IMG/VR virus record: IMGVR_UViG_3300025809_001850 | From: a virus | Taxonomy: Duplodnaviria; Caudoviricetes | DNA: 64,000 bases | Reading direction: 5' to 3' (one strand) | In this document: in pieces, positions 3,122-33,398 of the stretch | Position numbering within the stretch: position 1 is the stretch's first letter | How the letters are laid out: every line of letters begins with the position of its first letter | The notes under the pieces: generated by a model | Told to the model about the DNA's origin: nothing | Databases searched by the model: none | The model's input: the letters and a program-made list of their open reading frames with translations, nothing else | Position numbers and translations under genes: made by a program

Positions 3122-3535
3122 TTGGAACGACGTGTGATTAGGTTGAATGGCAATGTTTATTTAACGGAAGACGAAATTGATGACATCGTTCACACCACAT
3201 TAAATCAATTTAGAACTTCTCATCGTGCAATACTTCCAAAAAAAATAACTTACCTTGATCGTGAATTTGTAGACGCATTGAAAGACGAAGCAAAACACGC
3301 AATATTGAGTGTATATTATTTATATGGATACGGAGAAAAATACGCACCCGTTAAAAAAATTACAAAAGCAATTTCAGATAGATTTAAAGAAACAGATCAA
3401 TGTTGTGAAAAGCTGTATTTTATGCAATATGACTTAACAGACACTCAACGCAAAAAATATAGAACTCAGTATGAAAACTTCTTAATCAACACATTACTGG
3501 AAGAGTGTATACAAAAATTTAAAAAGTTATCATAA
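3122..3535 (+). CDS. hypothetical protein
   Basis: 137-aa ORF filling the gap between flanking genes; TTG start, exact start uncertain. Confidence 0.5.
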   Translation: MERRVIRLNGNVYLTEDEIDDIVHTTLNQFRTSHRAILPKKITYLDREFVDALKDEAKHAILSVYYLYGYGEKYAPVKKITKAISDRFKETDQCCEKLYFMQYDLTDTQRKKYRTQYENFLINTLLEECIQKFKKLS

Positions 3536-3538
3536 TAT

Positions 3539-3567
3539 TTGACAAAATACAAAAAGAATGGAATAAT
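3539..3567 (+). promoter_or_regulatory. sigma70-like promoter
   Basis: TTGACA (3539-3544), 17 nt, AATAAT (3562-3567) with TGn extension, directly before the ATG at 3574. Confidence 0.55.
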
Positions 3568-3573
3568 AAGGTT

Positions 3574-4200
3574 ATGGCTAAAATGGATAAAGACGATTTG
3601 AAATATGTGATCGGTCGATCACGTAAGTTGTTCAAAGGAGAAGAAATTCCCAAGGTACATGGATACGAAGGAGAAGTTGAAGAACTTGTTATTCGTCAAC
3701 CCGGTGAAATCTGGACAGATAAAAACGGAAAAGAGTGGAAGCAAGTGGGTTCTAACTCAAAGGTAAGAACTGAAACTTTAATGGACAAAGTCAGAAAGAC
3801 TCTACGGGAAGCACCCAAGTGTCCAAAGAAAATGTGTACTGTTGATCCAACCAAGAATTTAGATAAAAGAATGCTTGCTATGCGAGGTATGTGTTTTGAT
3901 TGTGTTCAAGAGCATGAACAAAAACTAAAAGACGAAGGTAAGTATGAAGCATACGAAGCAAAGACAATGCTTGAAAATGAACTTAGTTTTTTGTCTGACA
4001 CCAAAAGTAAATTGGTTGAATCAAAAGAGCATATAACAAACGACCCTAAATTTCTGAATGAAGATGGTTCTCTTGAGCAATGGAACATTCCAAATAAAAA
4101 AGAACTTATGAAAGATTTGGAATCAGACTTGGAAGAGCTTGAAGCAAGACTTTCTGAAATTGAGGACAGGTTAACTGAGTATGCAGACATCAAGTTCTAA
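3574..4200 (+). CDS. conserved hypothetical protein upstream of terminase, with CxxC-like pairs and C-terminal coiled coil
   Basis: 208 aa; CPKKMC and CFDC; heptad-like C-terminus. Confidence 0.65.
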   Translation: MAKMDKDDLKYVIGRSRKLFKGEEIPKVHGYEGEVEELVIRQPGEIWTDKNGKEWKQVGSNSKVRTETLMDKVRKTLREAPKCPKKMCTVDPTKNLDKRMLAMRGMCFDCVQEHEQKLKDEGKYEAYEAKTMLENELSFLSDTKSKLVESKEHITNDPKFLNEDGSLEQWNIPNKKELMKDLESDLEELEARLSEIEDRLTEYADIKF

Positions 4201-20112: not shown

Positions 20113-22764
20113 ATGGCAGAAAGAATTGTAAGCCCAGCAGTTTTCACCAACGAAATCGATCAAACATTCCTGACACAAGGTATCTCACAAATAGGTGGAG
20201 CAGTTGTTGGACCATTCAAAAAAGGTCCGGCATATGCACCAACGATTGTAAGAACTCACGCAGAACTTGAAGATTTATTTGGTGTTCCCCAAGGAAACTA
20301 TTATCAACCATTCACCGCACGTGAATACTTAACGCACCAAGGTGTTGTTACAATCGTTCGTGTCGGTGCTTTAGGTGGATATAAACAAGACAACGCACTT
20401 GTCATTAAAGCAAAGGTAACAGATGTACCTGCAGATTTAAGTGGATCACTAGGAAGTGGTTCTCTTGGAGTTGCAGTTGGTAACGAAGTTGTTATCGGTG
20501 TTTTGGCAAATACACTTTACGAAGGAGTCACAGATGATTCCGGATTTGAAGGTTCGTCAATCGATAACGACACATCTGTTTTGTATCACGATACAGAAAG
20601 TGTTGATCCAGAAACAGGTGAAACTGTTTCAGTAGGTAATCTCGAAACTACTTTGTATCTTAGAAAAACAGTAAGACTTGCAGATGAGTTCACAGGTGAC
20701 ATTATTGAAACTGTTCAAAGTTTGAAAGACGATTATGATTCTGATTATGTTTTTAACATTGATCCTAAAGAACCAGATAGTCTTCAAAACATATTCGGAA
20801 GAGCACCCAAGAAAAACTTGGAACCTGCATATTTCTATACATACTTTGAAAACTCACAAGAAGAAGTTTTCAATAACATCATGAGTGGTGTTAAGTATAA
20901 AATAGAAGTTGATACTTCAAGTGAAGCAATGGTATTTGAAACACGTGATAGTGTTACAGGTGAACTTGATGATGATCCTTGGAAACCAGGTGAGGCTGCA
21001 TTCAGTTGCAGACCTGCAGAAACTCCTTATATTAAGTCACAAGAAATAAGTGGCAGACGATATGATTTGTTTAAAGTATGGACACGCAACATGGGATCAG
21101 ATGCAAATCGTGAAATTAAGATTGCGATCTATAATGTTAGAACTCCTGGTTCAATCCAAGATTCCGATTACGCAACATTTAGTTTGATGGTTCGTTCGTT
21201 TAACGACAACGATAAATCTCCCGAGATTGTTGAAAATTATGATGGAGTTACACTTGACCCATTAAGTCCTCGTTATCTTCCACGTGTTATCGGTGATCGT
21301 TTTACTACCATCGATTCTAAAGGAAAGATCATTGACTATGGTGATTATGTAAACTCAAGTAACTGGATTCGTATTGAAATGCCAGCAGAAAGTACTGCAC
21401 CTGCAAATGCTATGCCTTATGGTCATGCTCCTTATCGTTCACCACTTGGTGGAATTGATGTAGGAACACCTGAGTATAGTTATGCTTCTCAGTATGCACG
21501 TTCACTTGGTAGATTCTTCAATGGTGCAGTTTTCAATCAAACATCACCTGATGGAATTCTTGAACTTCCAAATTCAGGAAGAGATACTTCGGAACTTTTC
21601 CGACCACTTCCTGCGAATCCTGGAGATGCCGGCCGTGGTTTTTACATGGACAGTTCTAAAAATGTAGAATGGAATGCAACTTATGTAGAAGAAGTGGATG
21701 GTGCAACTGATGTATTTGATGTTGATCCAATTCCAACTAATCCATCAACTGCTGACGAATTGCTTGTTGCAAAACTTCGTAGATTTGTTGTTGGATTCCA
21801 AGGTGGATTTGACGGACAATCTCCTGCACATCCAATCGCACTCGGAAAAGACATCACAGAGAATAATGCTCAAGGTCTTGATTGTAGTAGAGAATTCAGT
21901 TCAGGTACAAAGGGATACAAACGTGCGTTTGCAGCTCTTAGTAACCAAGACGAATTTGATATCAATCTTCTTGTAACACCCGGTTTGAGTCTTGATCTTC
22001 ATAGATCAGTTATCAATCGTGGTGTTGATTTGTGCGAACAACGTGAAGATTGTTTCTACATTCTTGATTGTGTAAGTGCAAATAACCAACCCGGTCGTGT
22101 AGATGATGCAGTTCAGCAAGTTGCTACTATTGATAGTAACTATGCCGCTACATACTACCCTTGGGTTAAGATTATTGATCCTGCAACAAACGTATTGCAA
22201 CCATATCCACCATCATCACTTATGATGGCAGTATATGCGGCCAACGATAAAAGTGCGGCTGAATGGTTTGCTCCTGCTGGTTTGAATCGTGGTGGAATTG
22301 AATCTGCGGTTGCGGTCATGGATCGTCTTAACTTCGCAGAAAGAGATACACTTTACGAAGGTAAGGTTAATCCAATTGCGGCTTTCCCTGGTCAAGGTAT
22401 TGTTGCTTTCGGTCAAAAGACCTTACAACGTCGTGCAAGTGCATTAGACAGAGTTAACGTACGTCGTTTGCTTATCACACTTAAAAAGTTCATTGCGAGT
22501 TCTGCAAGATTCTTGCTTTTCGAACAAAATGTGGCATCAACACGTAACCGTTTCCTTAGTATCGTTAATCCATACTTAGAAAACGTTCAACAACGTCATG
22601 GTCTGTATGCATTCCGTGTTATCATGGATGAGTCTAACAACACACCTGATCTCATTGATAGAAATATCCTGTATGGTCAGATATTCCTACAACCTGCACG
22701 TGCAGTTGAATTTATCATTCTTGACTTTAATCTTACACCAACTGGTGCAAGTTTCGAAGCATAA
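20113..22764 (+). CDS. contractile tail sheath protein (gp18-like)
   Basis: VSPAVFTNEIDQT, AVVGPFKKGPA, WFAPAGLNRGG, FGQKTLQ, LDRVNVRRLL, LLFEQN; AAGGAG RBS. Confidence 0.95.
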   Translation: MAERIVSPAVFTNEIDQTFLTQGISQIGGAVVGPFKKGPAYAPTIVRTHAELEDLFGVPQGNYYQPFTAREYLTHQGVVTIVRVGALGGYKQDNALVIKAKVTDVPADLSGSLGSGSLGVAVGNEVVIGVLANTLYEGVTDDSGFEGSSIDNDTSVLYHDTESVDPETGETVSVGNLETTLYLRKTVRLADEFTGDIIETVQSLKDDYDSDYVFNIDPKEPDSLQNIFGRAPKKNLEPAYFYTYFENSQEEVFNNIMSGVKYKIEVDTSSEAMVFETRDSVTGELDDDPWKPGEAAFSCRPAETPYIKSQEISGRRYDLFKVWTRNMGSDANREIKIAIYNVRTPGSIQDSDYATFSLMVRSFNDNDKSPEIVENYDGVTLDPLSPRYLPRVIGDRFTTIDSKGKIIDYGDYVNSSNWIRIEMPAESTAPANAMPYGHAPYRSPLGGIDVGTPEYSYASQYARSLGRFFNGAVFNQTSPDGILELPNSGRDTSELFRPLPANPGDAGRGFYMDSSKNVEWNATYVEEVDGATDVFDVDPIPTNPSTADELLVAKLRRFVVGFQGGFDGQSPAHPIALGKDITENNAQGLDCSREFSSGTKGYKRAFAALSNQDEFDINLLVTPGLSLDLHRSVINRGVDLCEQREDCFYILDCVSANNQPGRVDDAVQQVATIDSNYAATYYPWVKIIDPATNVLQPYPPSSLMMAVYAANDKSAAEWFAPAGLNRGGIESAVAVMDRLNFAERDTLYEGKVNPIAAFPGQGIVAFGQKTLQRRASALDRVNVRRLLITLKKFIASSARFLLFEQNVASTRNRFLSIVNPYLENVQQRHGLYAFRVIMDESNNTPDLIDRNILYGQIFLQPARAVEFIILDFNLTPTGASFEA

Positions 22765-23667: not shown

Positions 23668-24159
23668 ATGGCACAAGTTATTTCAACCGAAGAAATGTTT
23701 TTTACGGCATTTGAACCGAAAACAGCAAATCGTTTTATCATGTATATGGACGGAGTTCCTGCATATCTTATCAAGAGTGTTACTCGTCCGAATCTTAACA
23801 TTGAAGTTCAGACCCTCGACCACATCAACATCAAAAGAAAATTGAGAGGTGGTAAAGCAGAGTGGCAGGACATTACAATGACACTTTATGATCCAATCGT
23901 ACCAAGTGGCGCACAGGTTGCTATGGAATGGGTACGTCTTTCTCACGAATCAGTTACAGGTAGAAATGGTTATGCCGACTTCTACAAAAAAGACCTTGTT
24001 ATTAATACTCTCGGTCCTGTAGGTGATTTAGTTGAAGAATGGACAATCAAGGGTGCTTGGTGTCAAGCAACCAACATGGGAACACTTGATTGGTCAACCA
24101 GTGAATTTATGACTGTTGAACTTACCGTGTCTTACGACTACGCAATTCTTCAATACTAA
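23668..24159 (+). CDS. tail tube protein (gp19-like)
   Basis: FEPKTANRF, LYDPIVPSGAQVAMEW, GPVGDLVEEWTIKGAW, LTVSYDYA; GGAG RBS; ATATTTAT at 23623-23630. Confidence 0.9.
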   Translation: MAQVISTEEMFFTAFEPKTANRFIMYMDGVPAYLIKSVTRPNLNIEVQTLDHINIKRKLRGGKAEWQDITMTLYDPIVPSGAQVAMEWVRLSHESVTGRNGYADFYKKDLVINTLGPVGDLVEEWTIKGAWCQATNMGTLDWSTSEFMTVELTVSYDYAILQY

Positions 24160-24185: not shown

Positions 24186-24219
24186 AAAAAAAACTCCCTT
24201 CTCGGGAGTTTTTTTTTTT
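24186..24219 (+). terminator. intrinsic terminator after tail tube
   Basis: AAAAAAAACTCCC-TTCTC-GGGAGTTTTTTTT plus extra T residues. Confidence 0.9.
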
Positions 24220-24242: not shown

Positions 24243-24584
24243 ATGAATTCTGAAAAACTAAAAACACAAGTCCTTGATATATTTGAGGAAATTAAACACG
24301 ATAGGCAAGGTGAACTCCAACTTGAGGGATTAAGTGGTGCGTATTCTAAACTAGCAAAGTTTCTGTTAAATCAAGTAAAGGCAGGTAAATTTCTAAGAAA
24401 TTATGATATTGATACGGATAGTGGAAGATTTATGTTTCAAACAGGAAGTGGAAAAAAGATTGTGTTTAACGACATGAAACTTGGTGTTACACTAAATAAG
24501 ACATGGAAGGGTAAAAAGGATAGTGAGTTTTTCAGTTACGGTGATCATAAGAAAATATTAAGTTTTGCTTTAGCAGACATTTAA
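24243..24584 (+). CDS. hypothetical protein
   Basis: 113 aa; ATATTTAT at 24228-24235. Confidence 0.65.
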   Translation: MNSEKLKTQVLDIFEEIKHDRQGELQLEGLSGAYSKLAKFLLNQVKAGKFLRNYDIDTDSGRFMFQTGSGKKIVFNDMKLGVTLNKTWKGKKDSEFFSYGDHKKILSFALADI

Positions 24585-24684: not shown

Positions 24685-25620
24685 ATGAATGAAAATGAAT
24701 CAGTAGATATGCCTCCTGAGGTAAAACAAGCATTACAACGTGATGCAAACGAACAACGTGCGACTAATCAAAGTGTTAAAAACGAAACAAGTACGCAATC
24801 AACGCAGTCGCAACCAAATCCTGCGTTTTCTCAAGCAACAGATACTCCCAAGAAATTTGAGTTTCCAAGTGAGGTAGTTGATCTACCGAGTCAAGGTCAC
24901 TTTTACGATCCAACCTCTCCGTTGGCAAATGGAAAAATTGATATTAAATACATGACTGCACGTGAGGAAGATATTCTTACAAGTCAAAATCTTATCAAAA
25001 AGGGTGTAGTTTTAGACAAGTTGCTTGAAGCACTTATCGTTACTCCTGGTGCACAACTTGATGATATTTTGGTCGGAGATAAAAATGCTATTTTTGTGGC
25101 AGCTCGTATTCTTGCGTATGGAAAAGACTATAAAGTAAAATTTAAAGACCCATCAAACAATGAAGATGTTGAAGACACTATTGATTTGTCACAAATAGAA
25201 CCAAAAGAATTTGATTTTGAAAAGTATGATCGTGGAAGCAATATGTTTTCGTTTGAACTTCCTTTTAGTAAAAAGAATATTCATTGGAGTTTGCTAACAC
25301 ATCGTGACGAACAAAACATTGATGCTGAACTTAAAAGCATGAAAAAGTTTTCCAAGAATAAAAACGAAACAACTGAAGTTACCACTCGTTTGAAGTATGT
25401 TATCAAAGCAATTGACGGAGACGAAGATAAATCAAAAATCAAAAGTTTCGTTGATCGTGATCTTCTTGCACGTGATAGTTTGGCATTTCGTGAGTATATT
25501 AAAGATAATACTCCTGATCTGGATATGACATTCAACTTTGAATCAGAAGATACCGGTTATACTGAAAGGATGACGATCCCATTAGGGGTCGACTTTTTTT
25601 ACCCTTCCAGCCGAGTATAA
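24685..25620 (+). CDS. baseplate hub assembly / tail assembly chaperone (gp26-like, gpG position)
   Basis: VDLPSQGHFY, YMTAREEDILTSQNLIKKG, LVGDKNAIFVAARILAYGKDY, IPLGVDFFYP; lies between tube and tape measure. Confidence 0.75.
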   Translation: MNENESVDMPPEVKQALQRDANEQRATNQSVKNETSTQSTQSQPNPAFSQATDTPKKFEFPSEVVDLPSQGHFYDPTSPLANGKIDIKYMTAREEDILTSQNLIKKGVVLDKLLEALIVTPGAQLDDILVGDKNAIFVAARILAYGKDYKVKFKDPSNNEDVEDTIDLSQIEPKEFDFEKYDRGSNMFSFELPFSKKNIHWSLLTHRDEQNIDAELKSMKKFSKNKNETTEVTTRLKYVIKAIDGDEDKSKIKSFVDRDLLARDSLAFREYIKDNTPDLDMTFNFESEDTGYTERMTIPLGVDFFYPSSRV

Positions 25621-25843
25621 GGTTCAACTTCACGAAGAGATTTTCAATCTCTCTTATTACAGTCAAGGTGGTTTTACGCAAGATATTGCGTATAATTTAC
25701 CTGTATACCTTCGTAGATTTTATCTTAGAAAACTCGTTGATGTTAGAAATAAAGAAAATGAGGAAGTTGAAAAGGCAAGGTCTAAGACATCGTCTTCCAG
25801 CGCACCTACACGCAGACCACCACCTAAACGAACATATAGATAA
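25586..25843 (+). CDS. start-less ORF; probable frameshift extension (gpT-like) of 24685..25620
   Basis: The +1 frame is open from TAG(25583) to TAA(25841), reading FFTLPAEYKVQLHEEIFNLSYYSQGGF...; no ATG/GTG/TTG near its 5' end; overlaps a T7 run at 25594-25600. Confidence 0.7.
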   Translation, partial: GSTFFTLPAEYKVQLHEEIFNLSYYSQGGFTQDIAYNLPVYLRRFYLRKLVDVRNKENEEVEKARSKTSSSSAPTRRPPPKRTYR

Positions 25844-25865: not shown

Positions 25866-25904
25866 ATTGTCGTATATTTATCAATATATACGACAATTTT
25901 TTTT
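25866..25904 (+). terminator. intrinsic terminator-like hairpin containing an ATATTTAT motif
   Basis: ATTGTCGTATAT (25866-25877) pairs with ATATACGACAAT (25886-25897); T8 at 25897-25904. Confidence 0.6.
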
Positions 25905-25918
25905 ATAACACACATATA

Positions 25919-26233
25919 ATGGAAAACAATAAACAAAAAGATAAAGAACTTCTAAAAGAAGTAGTTGGGTGGCTTGTAAAAGGGTTATTCAATAGAAGTG
26001 TAAAAGCAGCTGAAACATTTATGAAAAACGACCCACGCGTTAGAAAAGCAGTTATGGATGCAGCCAAGTCAATGAAAAAAGCAGAGGATGATTTGCATAA
26101 TGCACTTGAAAGCAGATATGGAGGTACACCTGAAGAAATTGCCGATAACGCAAGAAAGGTCGGTATGTCAGTTGAAAAATATGCTAGGTTAGTTCTACTC
26201 AAAAATAAAGATGGAAGTAGACGACGTGCTTAA
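25919..26233 (+). CDS. hypothetical protein
   Basis: 104 aa immediately before the tape measure. Confidence 0.65.
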   Translation: MENNKQKDKELLKEVVGWLVKGLFNRSVKAAETFMKNDPRVRKAVMDAAKSMKKAEDDLHNALESRYGGTPEEIADNARKVGMSVEKYARLVLLKNKDGSRRRA

Positions 26234-26246
26234 TTTGAAATAGCAT

Positions 26247-29200
26247 ATGGCAACAATTGATGAGTCTGATTTTACTAACAAGCAAGTAGATGTAAAAGAT
26301 CACTTCGCTGCTTTGCAGCGGACTATGATCAATGTACAGAAAATTGATACCGAAACAATTGCTTCTCAATTATCTTCTCTTTCTGAGGTTATGGGAAGTT
26401 CGATGGAGGCACTTGCGGAAGGTAAGTTAGAAGATAAAGATCACCTCGATTTACAAAAGTATTTGGACAAATTGGGATTGATGGCAGAAGAAGGTGCAAA
26501 CGTTATTAAAGCATTTAATGCTTATACAAAAGAAGTTGCCAATTCAAAAGATGAAGAAGAAGCACTTGGAAAAGTGATAGATGCAAATCAAGCATCCATG
26601 AAAAAAATAAATGCTCTTGAAACAGAACGTGAAGAATTAATAAATAAAGTAAATAATCACAATAGCATTACTGAAGAATTATCCAACAAAATTAATAATG
26701 TATTAGAACGTAGAGAGCAATATCAAGAAACTTCTAATAATCTGGTTCAAAAATATAACGATAAAATAGAACAGGTAGAACAAAAATTAAAAGCAGAAAA
26801 TTCAAGTCAACAAGACATAGCAAAATTACAACAAGAAAAAATAAACCTTGAAACAAAGATTGGTGATGTTAAGGATAGAACAAACAGATTTTTAGACAAT
26901 TCGTTATCATTACATGAAGATTTAAAAACAAAACTTGAACAACAACAACAATTATACGAGGATGCACCAAATAAGATTGAGAGTATAAATTCTAAATTAA
27001 GACAAGAAATAGCATTTAATGATATTATTAAAAAAGATTTAGAAAATTTTTCCGAGGGAATGGAAAAATTTGGGTTGATGACGGACAAATCAAGAAAAGC
27101 AGTAGAAAAAGTGCTTGGTATTGATAAAGATATAAATAAAGAATTAAAAACATCCATTGATAATCAAGATAAACTCACTGGTAAAATTGATAAAACACAT
27201 CAAAATTCAAAAAATGTGTTGCAAACATTAGAAAATAGTGTGGAACGTACGGAATTGTTGATATCCGATACAACTGATTTTGCAAATGAAATGGGTCGGG
27301 CTGCGGATGAAGCAGAAAGACTGTTGGCCGCAACGCTTGCTATGCAAGTTGGTGGAAGAAGAAGAAGAACAGCAGCTGCAGAACCCAATCCATTTTCAAT
27401 TAATGATTCAGGTCAAGCAGAAATGCAAACCCCAGGTGGATATACAACAACCGTCTCCAAAGGTTTTGCCGCTGCCGCCACGGCAGGCATGACACTCCAG
27501 GCAAGTGCAATGAATTCAGGAGGATATATATCAGGTCCAGCTGGAATAGATGTAATTCCTGCTATGTTAACTAACGGAGAATATGTTGTAAATGCGTCTG
27601 CAACAAAAAAGTTTTTGCCTTTACTTGAAAAAATAAACTCTGGTCAAAGTCAGTCATTTGCAAGTGGTGGTGTGGTCGGTAATAATCCGTGGACAACCGC
27701 AGCCCATATAGAAGTCCCAAAATATTTGTCGGACATTGAAAAACATTTGAAAGAACTGCTGGGCCTCAGCAAAGAAGATGCAAGTAACTCCCAAAAAGAC
27801 ATCGTGAACCAAAGTCTTTATGAAGAGATGGTCCGTAATATACTCCAGTCAAAAGACCAATTATTTGGTCATCAAACTAACATCAACAATGGGCCCGGAA
27901 AAGAGAAAGGTCGTTTCGTATTACGCGATGAAAAAACGGGTAATTTTGATATGCCATCCTTTAAATCATCATACCCCACGGGTCGGCCCCAACTTAAGGA
28001 TCACGAATTCTGGGCAGCCGATAAAAAACACTTCCTGGAAGGTCCTGGAGATATTTATAAAGATCTGCAACAGGAAACAATTAAAGTTTTTATGGAAAAC
28101 CTTCACAATAATGGTACAGATTTTAGTAAGGTTGACGAAAAAACAATTAAAGCTGATATTGCTAAACAAATCCAAATTAATTTAAAAGCATTTGAAACAT
28201 TATATAAAGGAATTGAAAAAGAAAATAAGGTTACTAATAAGATACAAGGATATCAGTTAGAACAAGGTGAAGCTGCGGGTGCAAGTCCCGAGAGAAAATC
28301 TGATCTCGTGGACGCATTAAAACAACAAGCAGACTCAATGGAGTTCTTAAAAAACGCAGGAGTCATAGGTGATGACTTTGGACAGCGAGTTGAAGATACA
28401 AAAAGAGATCAACTTGTGAACTCGGTATTTTTATATGGCCTTCGCGATGAGTTAACCACTGCAATTAAAGAAGGACTGTATAACGATGTTGGTGATATTA
28501 GAAAAATGCTTGCCCAATACAAATCACCGGCAGAATTGACGGAATTGGCACAATTGGGTAAAACCGACGTGAGAAGCACAGACTGGACAGGCAGGGAAAA
28601 ACCTGCATTTCTTCAAGCTCTGGACAACCTTGAAAAAAATAAAAATCTTACTCCCGATTTCGCCGAGGTGAGTGCAAATCAAGAACGTCAGAAGGGTAAA
28701 ACCCCGATAAGCTTGGGAACACATATAACACAACAAATTGAGAAATTAAGAGTAAAAGAAGATGCAACCAAACCCGGTAAATCCAAACCTCCTCGAGCTC
28801 GTGGTGGGGGTATGTCCGGTTCTGGTGGTATTAGGCCTGGTGATGGAGATCAAGAGTATTTACAACATTTCAATAAATCAATTGATGTTATATCAAACGC
28901 ACGACAAAAAGCAAATAACGAAATTTTTGAAATAACAGGAGATGCAGCTAAATTCGGTGCAACTTCGGTTGCTGATTTTAATTCTCACATACAATCATTT
29001 TGGGACTCTTCTACGGAAGCTTTAAATGAGGGACAACAACATCTTAAAAAAGCTATGGTAGCAGTTGCGGAAACAGGTGAAGCAGGAATACGAAAATTAG
29101 AACAACTTGCAATGCAGACAACTCAGACATTTTCTTTAGTTGGAAATGATTTACCAACCAATTTATTGAACGTAAGAGATGCTACAATTGATACACTTAC

Positions 29201-32200
29201 TTCATTGAAAGATGCTACTAAAGGTGGTTCATTACTTGATATGGACCTAGATAGTGAAATTAATAAATTAGAGGAACTTCAAAAAGATCAACATCAAAAT
29301 ATAGATTCAGTACTTTCGGCAATGGCGAACTTAACAAGTATGTCTAATAGTGGAGTGCTGAATACGATGGCTTCTGAAAACAAAACAGAACGATCATCTG
29401 CAATTTCTAACCTATATGATATGATGGCAAATCAGTTGCAAGGTAAGCAAGATAAAAGCCGACGTTTGTCCAAAAACGTCGGCATTGACAAGGCAACAAC
29501 CGCGGTAAACTCCTTGTCAACAGGTGGATTTGTAAGTGGACCTATGGGAAAAGACGTAATTCCTGCAATGTTAACGGACGGAGAGTATGTAATAAGAGCA
29601 GATGTTGCAAAAAACTGGCGAGGTTTTCTTGAGCATTTAAATACCAACGGCCACCTTGGATTGCATCGTGGTGGACCTGTAATGCTTGCTGACGGTGGTG
29701 CTCCTGGTGGGGGTTCTGGAGGAGGAGGAGGAGGAGGAGGGGGTGGTGGAAGTGGTCCTGATCTATCTGCAATGCTATCTCAGTTAAGTAAAAACAATGC
29801 AGAGGTACAGGGTATGTCACATATTTTTAGTGAAATTGTTGAGTCCGTCAAAAAAGCTAACGAAGAAGGAAAAACCGCAGAACAACTTCAAGCATTAATA
29901 AACATCAAAGTATCTGATATGCAGAAAATGTTAGATTCGGAACTTGAAATGCAGGGAGACTTACTTAATGTAACCACGAAGCGACTCGGACAACTGAAAG
30001 CAATGAAAGACCTAAAACTATCAGGAGTGCATGACGCAGTATTAGGAGCATTTACTGCGGTAGAAGACAAAATTGATGGAATTTTATCTAGCATACCGTT
30101 CGTTGGTTCTGCACTCGCAATGAGTATAAAAGCATCGACTGGTCCTGCTTTTGATGAACTAAGAGAAGGAGCATCTGAGGCATTTTTAGCTATGGCAGAT
30201 GAAATTAATAACAACGGTAGGGATATAGATAGTGCAATGGTTGTTGGAATGGATAGATTCAAAGAAAGTGCAACTAAAGCAGGAGAGCATATGGAAATGG
30301 TAGGTTCGTTTGCCAAAAAAATAGGTCCGGGTATGATAGCAGCCGGAGCAGCTGCTTTAGGTTTTGTTGCGTTATTAGGAATGGCATTAAAAAGATTTTT
30401 TGATTTAGAAGCAAAATCACTTGAATTTCGTCAAGAACTTGGATTGGCTGCATCGTCCACGAAACATATAGAATCAGCAGCTGCCGAGGTAAACCAAGAA
30501 ATGGCAGGATATGGTGTAAATCTTGATCAAGCATATGAAGCCGCAACTGCTTTAACAAAAGAACTTGGTTCTACAATGCTTGTTACCAAAGACCAAATAA
30601 AAATGGTTGCTATGATGAATGCAGGTTTAGGAATATCTGCGGATAGTGCAGTTGGTGTTTATGAAACCTTCAAAAATCTAAGTGGTGGTTCGTCTGAAGT
30701 TGCAAAGAATTTAAGTTTAACAACGGTAGCATTAAGTACCGCAGCGGGAGTTCCATTGGATCAAGTAATGGGTGACATCGCAGGAGCATCTGAAACAGTT
30801 TATGCAATGTCACAAGGAACAGGTGTAGAATTGGCAGTTGCCGCTATTGAAGCACGACGTTTAGGAACAAACATTGAAAGCATTTCAAGTTCAATGGAAT
30901 CTGCGCTTGATTTTGAAAGTAGCATTTCCAACGAAATGAAAATGGCAAGTATGCTTGGACGTCATATAAGCATGGATGCAATGCGACAGGCTGCATTTGC
31001 AGGTGACCAAGTGAAGTACATGGAAGAACAACAAAAGGTGATGGGTGAGATTGGTGATTTATCTGAAATGAATATGCACCAAAGAAAATCCATTGCAGCT
31101 GCTATGGGAATGGAAGTTGGTGAGTTGATGAAAATGCAAACTCAAACCAAAGCATTGGCTGCATTAGAAAATGGAACAGTTGCACAAAAAGAAGCACTTG
31201 CTAAATATCAAAAACAAAGAAATGCCGCGTTGAATGGAGAAACAAAAAGTCTTGAAGAACAAGGCATGGAAATTCTCAAGCAACAAAATGCAGAAAATGT
31301 AAAAGCAGATATAATGGCAAAGATTAATTCATTAATGACGGATCTAGGTGAAGTATTGCTACCTGTAATTCAAGCAGGTTTTAAAATACTAATGCCTATA
31401 TTGGATGCAATATTCTTTGTACTTAAAGGAGTAGTTAAGGTTGTTGATTTTATTCTTACACCATTTACATTGATTGCTGACGTAATATCTGCAATAAATG
31501 ATGATTCGGATGCGTTGAAAGCACGTTTCGATGGAATTGTTCCGACATTAATTACTATATCAGGAGTAATCGCAGGCATAGGAGCATTATTTTTAGGCAT
31601 GGGCCCAATGATTGGTAAATTATTTAGTGGTATGGTGACCGGTGCAAAGAAAGCATTTGGTTTCATGCAAAAAGGAGCAAAGGGTGCATTTGGTATGTTA
31701 ACTGGAAAAGATGGAGCTCCTACTGGAGCAGATGTAACTGATAAAATAAAAGGAATGTTCGGTGGTGACAAAACAAAGAGTGGTGATCTAGTTCCTGATG
31801 TTGATCCAAAAAAGGGTGACAAATTTAAAAAGTTCTTAGATGCTTTCAACAAAATTGATATGTCAAAAATTGTTAAAGCTGCAGCTGCACTATTAATATT
31901 ATCCGGTGCGTTGTGGGTCTCGGCGAAAGCATTCCAAGAATTTTCCAAAGTTAGTTGGGATGGTGTAGCAAAAGGAATTATAGGATTAACTGCACTTGTT
32001 GTAGCTGCAAAGTTCTTAGAAAAAGGTTCAACATCTATGATAAAAGGAGCAGCTGCAATTGGAATTCTTGGTCTTGCATTGTTGCCCGCTGCATTGGCAT
32101 TCCAGATGTTTAGTGATGTTAGTTGGGGAGGAGTATTAGCAGGAATGATTGCTCTTGGGGCGTTGGCAGTTGTAGCAATGGTTCTTGGAAATCTTATTGT

Positions 32201-33398
32201 TCCAATCGCACTGGGAGCAGCTGCAATTGCGTTACTTGGTATTGCATTAATTCCGTTTGGTGTTGCGGCTATTTTTGCGGGAGTAGGTGCAATGTTGATT
32301 GCAACTGCATTTACCGTAATGGTATCTGCGTTACAATTATTAACATTTGAAGATATAGCAAAAATTGCGTTGTTAGGAGCAACTTTTGTGGGACTTGGTG
32401 TAATGATACCATTTGTTATATTAGGAGCAGCTGCACTTGGAATAATGGGAGCCGCACTTCTTGCCTTTAGTGTTAGTGCATTATTTGCAAGTGTAGGAAT
32501 TACGGCATTAGCAATAGGTTTTGCAATATTATCTGCTTCTATTGCAACAATGGGTGAAAATAGTATAGCAGTATTGTTGTCACTTGGAATGATTGGTTTA
32601 TTAGCACCTATGTTCTTTATTGCATCGGCCGGAATACTTATGTTGGCAGGTGCAATTGCAGTAATGAGTGCGGCTTTGCTTGGAGCAAGTATAATGAGTA
32701 TGTTCTCAAGTGATGATCCATTTGCGATGTATATTAATTTAGGTGAAAATGCAGATAAATTAGATAAGGCTGCCAATGGTCTTAAAAATATTGCTTGGTC
32801 TATGTCTGCTTTATCAAATGTAGATGCAGAAGATATTCTAGGGGACATTGCAGATGGTATGGAAGAACTATTTGACGAAATTGAAGATATAGAAATTGAT
32901 GCAATAAATAAGTTCGTTTCTATCGGAACTAGTTTTGGTTTGATTGGTGCTGGAATGAACGAAATCAAAACTGGAATTGGTCCATTTAAAGAAATGCTTA
33001 CATTAATCAGTGATCCTGCTAACTACGAGGCCGCAATTGTCGGTATTAACTCATTAACTCTTGCTTTAACTGATTTGTGTAGTGTAATTCAAAGTTTAGG
33101 TGAATCTGAACTAGGAATCTTGGAAGTATCATCTGCCGAAGGAGGAGGAGGAGAAGCTCCTACCACCCAAGAAATGGCAGGAGGAGGTGCTGGTGCAGTA
33201 CCAATGACCACTGTGGTTCAACAAGTTGCATCTGTACCAGCTACATCTGGTGTAGCAATGAATTCTGCCGGTGGAGCAAGTAGCAATGGAGTTGAAACCC
33301 GACTTGATGAATTAATTTCATTAATGAAGTCTGGAAAGATAGGTGTTAACTTAGATGGTAAAAAAGTAGAGTCACAACTTGCGAAAACAGCACCATAA
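26247..33398 (+). CDS. tape measure protein
   Basis: 2383 aa; helical/coiled-coil, Ala/Gly-rich, periodic hydrophobic block near aa 1900-2150; canonical position after chaperone and before baseplate genes. Confidence 0.9.
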   Translation: MATIDESDFTNKQVDVKDHFAALQRTMINVQKIDTETIASQLSSLSEVMGSSMEALAEGKLEDKDHLDLQKYLDKLGLMAEEGANVIKAFNAYTKEVANSKDEEEALGKVIDANQASMKKINALETEREELINKVNNHNSITEELSNKINNVLERREQYQETSNNLVQKYNDKIEQVEQKLKAENSSQQDIAKLQQEKINLETKIGDVKDRTNRFLDNSLSLHEDLKTKLEQQQQLYEDAPNKIESINSKLRQEIAFNDIIKKDLENFSEGMEKFGLMTDKSRKAVEKVLGIDKDINKELKTSIDNQDKLTGKIDKTHQNSKNVLQTLENSVERTELLISDTTDFANEMGRAADEAERLLAATLAMQVGGRRRRTAAAEPNPFSINDSGQAEMQTPGGYTTTVSKGFAAAATAGMTLQASAMNSGGYISGPAGIDVIPAMLTNGEYVVNASATKKFLPLLEKINSGQSQSFASGGVVGNNPWTTAAHIEVPKYLSDIEKHLKELLGLSKEDASNSQKDIVNQSLYEEMVRNILQSKDQLFGHQTNINNGPGKEKGRFVLRDEKTGNFDMPSFKSSYPTGRPQLKDHEFWAADKKHFLEGPGDIYKDLQQETIKVFMENLHNNGTDFSKVDEKTIKADIAKQIQINLKAFETLYKGIEKENKVTNKIQGYQLEQGEAAGASPERKSDLVDALKQQADSMEFLKNAGVIGDDFGQRVEDTKRDQLVNSVFLYGLRDELTTAIKEGLYNDVGDIRKMLAQYKSPAELTELAQLGKTDVRSTDWTGREKPAFLQALDNLEKNKNLTPDFAEVSANQERQKGKTPISLGTHITQQIEKLRVKEDATKPGKSKPPRARGGGMSGSGGIRPGDGDQEYLQHFNKSIDVISNARQKANNEIFEITGDAAKFGATSVADFNSHIQSFWDSSTEALNEGQQHLKKAMVAVAETGEAGIRKLEQLAMQTTQTFSLVGNDLPTNLLNVRDATIDTLTSLKDATKGGSLLDMDLDSEINKLEELQKDQHQNIDSVLSAMANLTSMSNSGVLNTMASENKTERSSAISNLYDMMANQLQGKQDKSRRLSKNVGIDKATTAVNSLSTGGFVSGPMGKDVIPAMLTDGEYVIRADVAKNWRGFLEHLNTNGHLGLHRGGPVMLADGGAPGGGSGGGGGGGGGGGSGPDLSAMLSQLSKNNAEVQGMSHIFSEIVESVKKANEEGKTAEQLQALINIKVSDMQKMLDSELEMQGDLLNVTTKRLGQLKAMKDLKLSGVHDAVLGAFTAVEDKIDGILSSIPFVGSALAMSIKASTGPAFDELREGASEAFLAMADEINNNGRDIDSAMVVGMDRFKESATKAGEHMEMVGSFAKKIGPGMIAAGAAALGFVALLGMALKRFFDLEAKSLEFRQELGLAASSTKHIESAAAEVNQEMAGYGVNLDQAYEAATALTKELGSTMLVTKDQIKMVAMMNAGLGISADSAVGVYETFKNLSGGSSEVAKNLSLTTVALSTAAGVPLDQVMGDIAGASETVYAMSQGTGVELAVAAIEARRLGTNIESISSSMESALDFESSISNEMKMASMLGRHISMDAMRQAAFAGDQVKYMEEQQKVMGEIGDLSEMNMHQRKSIAAAMGMEVGELMKMQTQTKALAALENGTVAQKEALAKYQKQRNAALNGETKSLEEQGMEILKQQNAENVKADIMAKINSLMTDLGEVLLPVIQAGFKILMPILDAIFFVLKGVVKVVDFILTPFTLIADVISAINDDSDALKARFDGIVPTLITISGVIAGIGALFLGMGPMIGKLFSGMVTGAKKAFGFMQKGAKGAFGMLTGKDGAPTGADVTDKIKGMFGGDKTKSGDLVPDVDPKKGDKFKKFLDAFNKIDMSKIVKAAAALLILSGALWVSAKAFQEFSKVSWDGVAKGIIGLTALVVAAKFLEKGSTSMIKGAAAIGILGLALLPAALAFQMFSDVSWGGVLAGMIALGALAVVAMVLGNLIVPIALGAAAIALLGIALIPFGVAAIFAGVGAMLIATAFTVMVSALQLLTFEDIAKIALLGATFVGLGVMIPFVILGAAALGIMGAALLAFSVSALFASVGITALAIGFAILSASIATMGENSIAVLLSLGMIGLLAPMFFIASAGILMLAGAIAVMSAALLGASIMSMFSSDDPFAMYINLGENADKLDKAANGLKNIAWSMSALSNVDAEDILGDIADGMEELFDEIEDIEIDAINKFVSIGTSFGLIGAGMNEIKTGIGPFKEMLTLISDPANYEAAIVGINSLTLALTDLCSVIQSLGESELGILEVSSAEGGGGEAPTTQEMAGGGAGAVPMTTVVQQVASVPATSGVAMNSAGGASSNGVETRLDELISLMKSGKIGVNLDGKKVESQLAKTAP

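Follow-up and report, generated by a model that had tools for sequence, protein, structure and literature searches.

Probable programmed +1 recoding behind a conserved hairpin in a gp26-type tail assembly chaperone gene of tailed phages

Introduction

Does a single gene lying ahead of the tape measure gene of a tailed phage encode two proteins and, if so, how is the second one made? We address this question for a 64,000-nucleotide stretch of DNA from a marine phage (IMG/VR virus record IMGVR_UViG_3300025809_001850; Duplodnaviria; Caudoviricetes), which is called the window below. It contains a tail assembly chaperone (TAC) gene of the T4 gp26 type, in which a run of seven T near the 3' end is followed by a second open frame. 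A preliminary description of the window had proposed that a programmed +1 (or -2) frameshift on this run joins the two frames, giving a two-product chaperone system of the gpG/gpGT type of phage lambda with an uncommon direction of shift.

Among cases of recoding in phages, that of the two-product tail chaperone ranks with the most conserved. The frameshift in the chaperone genes of long-tailed phages was described by Levin (1993) and by Xu, Hendrix and Duda (2004, 2013, 2014), whose work is cited here after the summary in PMC5009743. In the lambda model given there, the N part shared by both products is assigned to the tape measure protein, and the tube protein is left to the C domain, which the long product alone carries. 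T4-type phages have long been listed as an exception to this two-product recoding (PMC5009743). According to papers that cite Vladimirov, Gautam and Davidson (2022, Virology 566:9), gp26 and gp51 are the short (TAC-N) and long (TAC-NC) chaperones of T4-like phages, made from two genes without a frameshift (PMC10885494), and TAC-N genes of T4-like phages are reported to carry poly-T slippery sequences (PMC12846349). Already known, then, are recoded two-product tail chaperones and, judging from these citing papers, the link of gp26 with gp51 made in 2022.

In this study, we report a comparative analysis of the locus, its slippery site, an RNA hairpin immediately upstream of it, and the ways in which related phages obtain the same pair of proteins.

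Results

Two reading frames meet at a run of seven T

The features of the gene are as follows, with lengths in amino acids (aa) and nucleotides (nt).

24685..25843, plus strand: whole recoded gene; predicted long form (TAC-NC) of 385 aa (305 + 80), with natural in-frame equivalents known in relatives
24685..25620, plus strand: frame-0 open reading frame (ORF); short chaperone form (TAC-N), T4 gp26-like, 311 aa (PF12322, phrog_150, AlphaFold model)
25574..25591, plus strand: RNA hairpin CGAUCCC-AUUA-GGGGUCG, ending 2 nt (AC) before the U run; candidate stimulator, also terminator-like together with the U tract
25594..25600, plus strand: slippery run TTT TTT T (two in-frame Phe codons and a T); proposed +1 shift site
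25601..25843, plus strand: +1-frame extension; C domain of the long form, 80 codons and TAA
25618..25620, plus strand: frame-0 stop TAA, 6 codons past the T7 run

Across the site, frame 0 reads GAC TTT TTT TAC CCT TCC AGC CGA GTA TAA. In the +1 frame, a TAG at 25583-25585 is followed by an open stretch that runs from 25586 to the TAA at 25841-25843 and leaves 80 codons past the slip codon; ATG, GTG and TTG starts are all absent from it (by the ORF list and by the translated peptide, which has no Met). The two frames, the upstream TAG, the 80 codons without a start and the sum of 305 and 80 residues all stand in the sequence as previously described. The predicted junction peptide of the 385-aa product is GVDFFTLPAEYK. 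The T7 run alone is unremarkable, as the same strand of the window, which has 35.6% G+C, carries nine T runs of seven or more, several of them within ORFs. The case rests on conservation among relatives, and the feature stands above chance because the extension is conserved there.

The +1 frame encodes a conserved protein domain

The comparison took in 67 loci: 65 on viral contigs, two from cultured phages, and the window. The related contigs are 161-170 kilobases (kb) long. A homologous extension lies in the +1 frame in 65 of the 67. The same arrangement was found in the cultured phages immuto (of Flavobacterium), Mel-JY01 (of Microcystis), SP-15, LIS04, HSE3 and GXN1, as well as in a 484-kb uncultured phage. 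Upstream of the run, the entropy at the three codon positions peaks at the third position of frame 0 (0.26, 0.12, 0.84), and downstream of it at the third position of the +1 phase (0.44, 0.24, 1.02), a periodicity in which purifying selection on the +1 frame is apparent.

An alignment of 15 diverse extensions has 9 invariant residues, and protein conservation begins with the first codon past the run, (T/G)L..EY. A profile of the extension matches 1029 clusters among 1.84 billion proteins. Among the best 150 of these clusters, 139 are orphan ORFs of 47-126 aa and 10 are proteins of 237-318 aa that carry the domain at their C terminus; a Pfam scan of seven of the 10 found PF12322 above the cut-off in six (293-318 aa) and below it in one (P0178, 237 aa). 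The profile also recognises the +1 extensions of Bacillus phages SP-15 and HSE3, Listeria phage LIS04, Streptococcus phage GXN1 and the 484-kb uncultured phage, and a -1-frame extension in a 595-kb uncultured phage. Judged by alignment and profile, the extension is a real, conserved protein domain under selection. On its own it has no Pfam or PHROG match; in a structural model of a natural fusion, the C domain is predicted to form three helices behind the PF12322 domain.

The long form escapes standard gene calling, as had been suspected. More than 7600 proteins match the frame-0 product; the best 120 are all 246-320 aa long and none is of about 385 aa. We found no frameshift annotation in the public records of the relatives, where the extension is left without annotation or appears as an orphan ORF. 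In immuto (L001, 3654-3877), Mel-JY01 (L002, 3663-3899), SP-15 (L068, 3214-3413), LIS04 (L070, 3202-3433) and HSE3 (L071, 3234-3404), no slippage is marked, and the extension is unannotated or is in part a small hypothetical protein.

A sequencing error in the homopolymer, considered as a trivial explanation, is ruled out by the 65 independent +1 loci. Contigs of one independent DNA run and of RNA libraries from three studies span the T7 run with zero indels; this check was made on assembled contigs rather than raw reads and gives the bulk T count, being blind to minority U6 or U8 transcripts. The agreement of DNA and RNA-library contigs without an indel excludes misassembly as the source of the T7 length and means that most of any RNA has U7. 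In run X20, the contigs that end at 25593 match what a strain bubble would give rather than variation in run length.

The slip site follows a common rule in +1 lineages

The T7 run is invariant in 32 of 32 unique close relatives, all of which read GAC TTT TTT TAC C. More distant marine clades have TTT TTT TGG CC, immuto and loci L062/63 have TTT CTT TGG, HSE3 and GXN1 have TTC TTT CGT, SP-15 has TTT TTT CAC, LIS04 has TTT TTT AGT and locus L072 has TTT CTA. Common to all +1 lineages (65 loci and 6 cultured phages) is an in-frame UUU followed by a pyrimidine (UUU_Y), or a CUU followed by U as in the release factor 2 (RF2) gene prfB of Escherichia coli; T7 or another in-frame UUU_Y is found in all 65 loci with the extension. 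As far as codon sequence tells, the P-site tRNA can re-pair one base forward on such UUU_Y and CUU_U sites.

Both Phe codons of the site are always TTT in the 32 close relatives, while nearby Phe codons vary; at the site itself, no synonymous third-position change is seen in the Gly, Asp and Phe codons, and only rarely one in the Val codon. The frame-0 codon in the A site is UAC in the window and UGG, CAC, AGU, CGU or CUA in the relatives, and never a stop.

The direction of the shift follows from the same comparison. A -2 shift, which would leave a different junction with three Phe residues (GVDFFFTLPAEYK), fits only unbroken runs and fails on the TTT CTT T, TTC TTT C and TTT CTA of relatives, and this alternative was abandoned. 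The -1 frame of the window, also open at the site, was rejected as well, as its translation reads as junk.

A hairpin precedes the run at +1 loci

The 18-nt hairpin at 25574-25591 has a stem of 7 base pairs (bp) and a computed energy of -11.3 kcal/mol. The preliminary description had noticed the AGGGG (25584-25588) 5 nt upstream of the T7 run and likened it to the Shine-Dalgarno (SD) stimulator of prfB. Its position was correctly given; its role is more likely that of a part of the 3' arm of the hairpin, because other clades keep the hairpin without an SD-like sequence. With many clades of this kind, a prfB-like SD was rejected as the conserved stimulator.

Across 32 distinct close relatives, the stem does not change, and the Leu codon that makes up the loop varies freely. 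Elsewhere the stem is spelled differently: a U-G pair is turned to U-A in L024, and the stem is respelled UCUGCCC/GGGUAGA in L034/L039. Further loci have unrelated stems at the same spot, namely AUACCG/CGGUAU (L043), GUGCCG/CGGUAC (L046 group), AACGGUC/GACCGUU (L062), GCAUCC/GGAUGC (L072) and CUGGAGUU/GACUCCAG (HSE3). The base of the stem lies 7-10 nt before the end of the run in most clades. As hairpin registers differ slightly, each upstream sequence was tested against windows of its own gene. The fold energy fell in the lowest 5% of such windows for 23 of 25 distinct upstream 30-mers, a count that includes related sequences and corresponds to about nine independent stem designs; L072 and HSE3 were at 0%. 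The control loci were without a notable hairpin, with fractions of 0.25, 0.06 and 0.46 for two-gene loci, 1.0 for a fused-gene junction and 0.23 for a -1 locus. At the sequence level, then, the hairpin is associated with +1 loci and not with two-gene or -1 loci.

A second structure lies beyond the extension:

25866..25904, plus strand: intrinsic-terminator-like hairpin (12 pairs, loop of 8) followed by T8, 23 nt past the extension stop

It stands after the stop of the extension, not after that of frame 0, and just ahead of the next gene (25919); therefore, the transcription unit is laid out around the long form.

Related phages make the same pair by two genes or by a probable -1 shift

In L044 (1465-3233) and L045, a short gene ending ...NFFWPN..., with TTC TTC TGG replacing the run, is followed by a full fused gene (PF12322 and C domain, 304 aa), the GTG start of which overlaps the short gene's TGA stop. 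L075 and L076 carry the same tandem pair, short gene then fused gene. L044 and L075 no longer have the slippery run (TTC TTC TGG), and L076 retains TTC TTT T. The tandem pair is the T4 solution arising inside a frameshifting clade, with the run lost in two of three lineages. In L076 (3118-4891), the fused second gene lies in the +1 frame of the first, so that a slip at TTC TTT T would read into it.

In the 595-kb uncultured phage (L073, LR756511; ~3300-3580), the C domain lies in the -1 frame behind GGT TTT TTC, which contains the canonical heptamer U_UUU_UUC. Because this locus reaches the C domain by the -1 frame, the direction of shift appears to vary within one gene family.

In T4 itself, both gp26 and gp51 match PF12322, and they are paralogues (BLASTP E 2e-6). 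T4 thus has two PF12322 genes (26 and 51), and the relatives of the window and SP-15 have one each, as checked in the 161- and 170-kb contigs of relatives (80-84% complete) and in SP-15. Comparison of the C domain with the tail of gp51 by BLASTP, hhalign and hmmsearch gave nothing significant, with a weak local resemblance at gp51 237-248, and a shape search of the ESM Atlas gave no help.

The gene is a gp26-type chaperone between tube and tape measure genes

Three neighbours identify the setting of the gene:

20113..22764, plus strand: tail sheath protein (PF04984, PF17482, phrog_23)
23668..24159, plus strand: tail tube protein, gp19-like (PF06841, phrog_4542)
26247..33398, plus strand: tape measure protein, 2383 aa (phrog_25241 tail length tape measure, E 2e-15)

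The order of sheath, tube, chaperone and tape measure genes is the same in immuto, Mel-JY01, SP-15, LIS04 and HSE3, and a tail assembly chaperone gene classically occupies the slot between the tube and tape measure genes. The frame-0 protein matches PF12322 (T4_baseplate, the gp26/gp51 family) over residues 81-257 with 35.1 bits against a cut-off of 24.5, matches phrog_150 'baseplate hub', and in BFVD matches many 'baseplate hub subunit/assembly' proteins with E values down to 4e-21. The gene is a T4 gp26-type (PF12322) tail assembly chaperone gene of the kind commonly named 'baseplate hub subunit'. Its position and the conserved +1 domain lend support to the earlier assignment to a two-product system of the G/GT type with a +1 shift.

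An AlphaFold (AF2) model of the frame-0 protein, built from 28 sequences with a predicted local distance difference test (pLDDT) value of 83, was aligned to 48,161 PDB representatives. The best three matches were YqbN (3KLU, a weak Z of 5.8 with 101 residues aligned), Rbstp2171 (3FGX, Z 5.3, 84 residues) and HK97 gp13 (2OB9, Z 4.8, 96 residues), all with Z values under the aligner's safe level and barely above those of the next matches. These are the three solved tail assembly chaperones (PMC9603447). The model-based matches are suggestive, not proof, of a chaperone fold. A Foldseek search of the PDB with the same model gave no significant match, in contrast to the exhaustive aligner. The first ~58 residues are mostly of low confidence in the model, except for a predicted helix at 11-28.

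Some further observations concern the gene and its surroundings. The frame-0 protein (24685-25620) has zero cysteines; distant relatives and T4 gp26 and gp51 carry CxxC pairs that form a zinc-ribbon-like element directly ahead of the FF motif. The tape measure protein (26247-33398), with its 2383 aa, is very long for a contractile-tailed phage and matches the tape measure PHROG over residues 397-480 only. The 104-aa ORF ahead of the tape measure gene (25919-26233) has no family match. An A8 run and a T11 run lie within 24186-24219, between the tube gene and a 113-aa ORF (24243-24584); this region could hold a further terminator or a regulatory site by which the ratio of tube to chaperone is set.

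Ribosome or RNA polymerase

We consider it very probable that some form of programmed +1 recoding makes the fusion. As to the mechanism, a +1 ribosomal frameshift is the probable one; we infer the shift, its level, its assignment to the ribosome or the polymerase, the role of the hairpin and the partners of the two domains. Normal reading would give the 311-aa short form with its stop at 25618. In a minority of decoding events, the ribosome would slip one base forward on the U7 at 25594-25600 and make the 385-aa long form, in which the 80-residue C domain is added at the junction ...GVDFF-TLPAEYK.... For this, the peptidyl-tRNA-Phe on the in-frame UUU would re-pair with the overlapping UUU or, at other UUU_Y sites, UUC, helped by a weak UUU in the E site. 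The hairpin at 25574-25591 may refold behind the ribosome and promote the slip, as the internal SD duplex of prfB does. On 70S ribosomes, engineered hairpins placed beside the E site do promote +1 shifting and reduce -1 shifting, in the manner of the prfB SD duplex (PMC6321510).

In the alternative of programmed transcriptional slippage, a fraction of the mRNA would carry U6 and encode the 385-aa fusion by ordinary translation, giving a protein identical to that of the +1 slip. The polymerase would reach the end of U7, the nascent hairpin at 25574-25591 would form 9 nt behind the 3' end and melt the RNA-DNA hybrid in its upstream portion, and the rU:dA hybrid that is left would slip forward, producing the one-base deletion that is required. 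The position of the stem base, 7-10 nt before the run end in most clades, suits such a slip, as does the intact T7 of the close relatives with its unchanging TTT codons.

Several observations weigh against a ribosomal shift, some of them by favouring the polymerase. The hairpin, AC and U7 together have the geometry of an intrinsic terminator, and the site was called terminator-like. Its layout matches that of the Roseiflexus IS630 element, where a 6-bp GC stem with a 4-nt loop stands directly 5' of T5C5 and transcripts are one base short (Penno et al. 2015, via PMC5009743). The title of Vladimirov 2022 also counts toward transcriptional slippage. The A-site codon is neither a stop nor obviously slow, unlike that of prfB and of most known +1 sites, and the strict T7 of most lineages exceeds what a UUU_Y slip needs. 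The stimulator itself is weakened by the relatedness of the sequences behind the fold-energy count and by a hairpin that is absent or weak in immuto, L032, GXN1, LIS04 and SP-15; RNAalifold found no common structure in 15 anchored sequences because the hairpin registers differ.

We nevertheless favour the ribosome and regard slippage by the polymerase as possible but rather unlikely, because at least five +1 lineages without a run longer than T3 (immuto, L062/63, HSE3, GXN1 and L072) keep the in-frame site, three of them with strong hairpins. The polymerase is unlikely to slip by one base on T3, whereas ribosomal slips on UUU_C or CUU_U account for all lineages with a broken run. In addition, the RNA-library contigs of the three studies carry only U7, a result that is blind to minority transcripts and may include DNA, and a ribosome following close behind the polymerase would hinder folding of the hairpin. 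The resemblance to Roseiflexus IS630 also has its limits. The GC-rich hairpin with a 4-nt loop directly 5' of the run and the loss of one base are shared, but the run is U5C5 there and U7 here, several homologous chaperone loci have no run at all, and the present case is known from DNA and contigs. The ribosomal and transcriptional mechanisms could both contribute.

It is most improbable that the second frame forms a small gene by itself, started at a non-canonical codon, and that no fusion is made. Gene callers do often report an orphan ORF of 47-126 aa, and the Mel-JY01 annotation gives a TTG start upstream of the run; yet the window's +1 frame is devoid of ATG, GTG and TTG, conservation starts just at the first codon past the run, the same domain is fused in frame to PF12322 in independent lineages, and the T run and hairpin are conserved at synonymous sites. 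No better does the proposal fare that the hairpin and U7 are an internal partial terminator lowering tape measure expression, with the +1 frame a decaying remnant or an assembly error: the site is terminator-like, and AT-rich DNA keeps frames open by chance, even the junk -1 frame, but termination within the run would yield mRNAs without a stop codon, a second and stronger terminator follows the extension stop (25866-25904), the invariant residues, +1-phase periodicity, 1029 matching clusters and signs of purifying selection speak against a remnant, and the independent contigs agree on T7.

Discussion

The locus resembles lambda gpG/gpGT in several ways. The tape measure gene comes shortly after the chaperone gene, the two products have their N part in common, no start codon belongs to the second frame, slipping is placed close to the 3' end of the gene, and the products are not expected in the virion. 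By analogy with lambda, the N domain common to both forms would coat the tape measure protein, and recruitment of the tube protein would fall to the C domain; a complex prediction for the tube protein and the C domain scored 0.00 and returned no verdict, which is uninformative either way on binding. The window differs from lambda in its shift, which is +1 and not -1, in its site, UUU_U in place of G GGA AAG, and in its candidate stimulator, a 5' hairpin. The N domain is ~250 aa long (PF12322) against ~130 aa for lambda G, and we found no sequence similarity between the window's chaperone and lambda G.

Closer in mechanism may be prfB (CUU UGA C with an internal SD), which shares the P-site slip onto an overlapping UUU and a duplex-forming element just upstream of the E and P sites; immuto and L062/63 have exactly CUU_U, then GG. 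In the window, however, the A-site codon is a sense codon and not a stop, most clades have an mRNA hairpin in place of an SD:anti-SD duplex, and the chaperone gene has no autoregulatory logic. The spacing differs as well, the internal SD of prfB lying 3 nt before the P-site codon and the AGGGG of the window 8 nt before the second UUU. The engineered upstream hairpins (Cho et al. 2013, PMC3639245; Huang, Cho and Chang 2018, PMC6321510) share with the locus a stable hairpin beside the E-site codon and a +1 shift, and they attenuate -1 shifting; the one examined -1 locus of the chaperone family has no notable hairpin. They were designed with 12 bp on CUUUGA without RF2, whereas the natural stems here have 6-8 bp and stand before UUU_Y.

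T4 gp26 and gp51 belong to the same Pfam family as the gene of the window, and gp51, a PF12322 domain with a 48-aa tail, follows the logic of a long form. Unlike the single gene of the window, with its +1 shift and its place in the order of sheath, tube, chaperone and tape measure, the two T4 genes are divergently transcribed, lie away from the tube gene and use no recoding.

To the known two-product chaperones, the present analysis adds the UUU_Y rule for +1 lineages, the hairpin with its association to +1 loci, and the tandem-gene and -1 variants within the same clade, along with the structural link to solved chaperones and the check on RNA-library contigs. One practical outcome concerns annotation. 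The long form is missed in the records of immuto, Mel-JY01, SP-15, LIS04 and HSE3 and in metagenome gene calls, which leaves spurious orphan ORFs or gaps. It would be found by a simple rule, which asks for a PF12322 gene ahead of the tape measure gene, for UUU_Y in frame within it and for a +1 frame that is open.

More tentatively, and as a possibility that we rate somewhat below even, the hairpin ending 2-3 nt before the run may be a natural, widely conserved 5' stimulator of +1 slippage, ribosomal or transcriptional, in thousands of marine and Firmicutes phages, the same need being met by a +1 shift with a hairpin, by a -1 shift without one, or by gene duplication. We know of no natural upstream hairpin in bacteria or phages that stimulates +1 shifting, although no exhaustive search was made. 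If the hairpin acts on the ribosome, the engineered upstream hairpin that refolds in imitation of the prfB SD duplex would have its first natural counterpart here; if the target is the polymerase, this would be the second natural case of stem-loop-dependent transcriptional slippage after Roseiflexus IS630. Either way, the conserved 5' hairpin would offer a testable natural model for structures that push a decoding or transcribing machine forward. For the phages themselves, the locus and its relatives would place the gp26/gp51 family under the two-product rule, with three interchangeable solutions: a +1 shift, a -1 shift or two genes.

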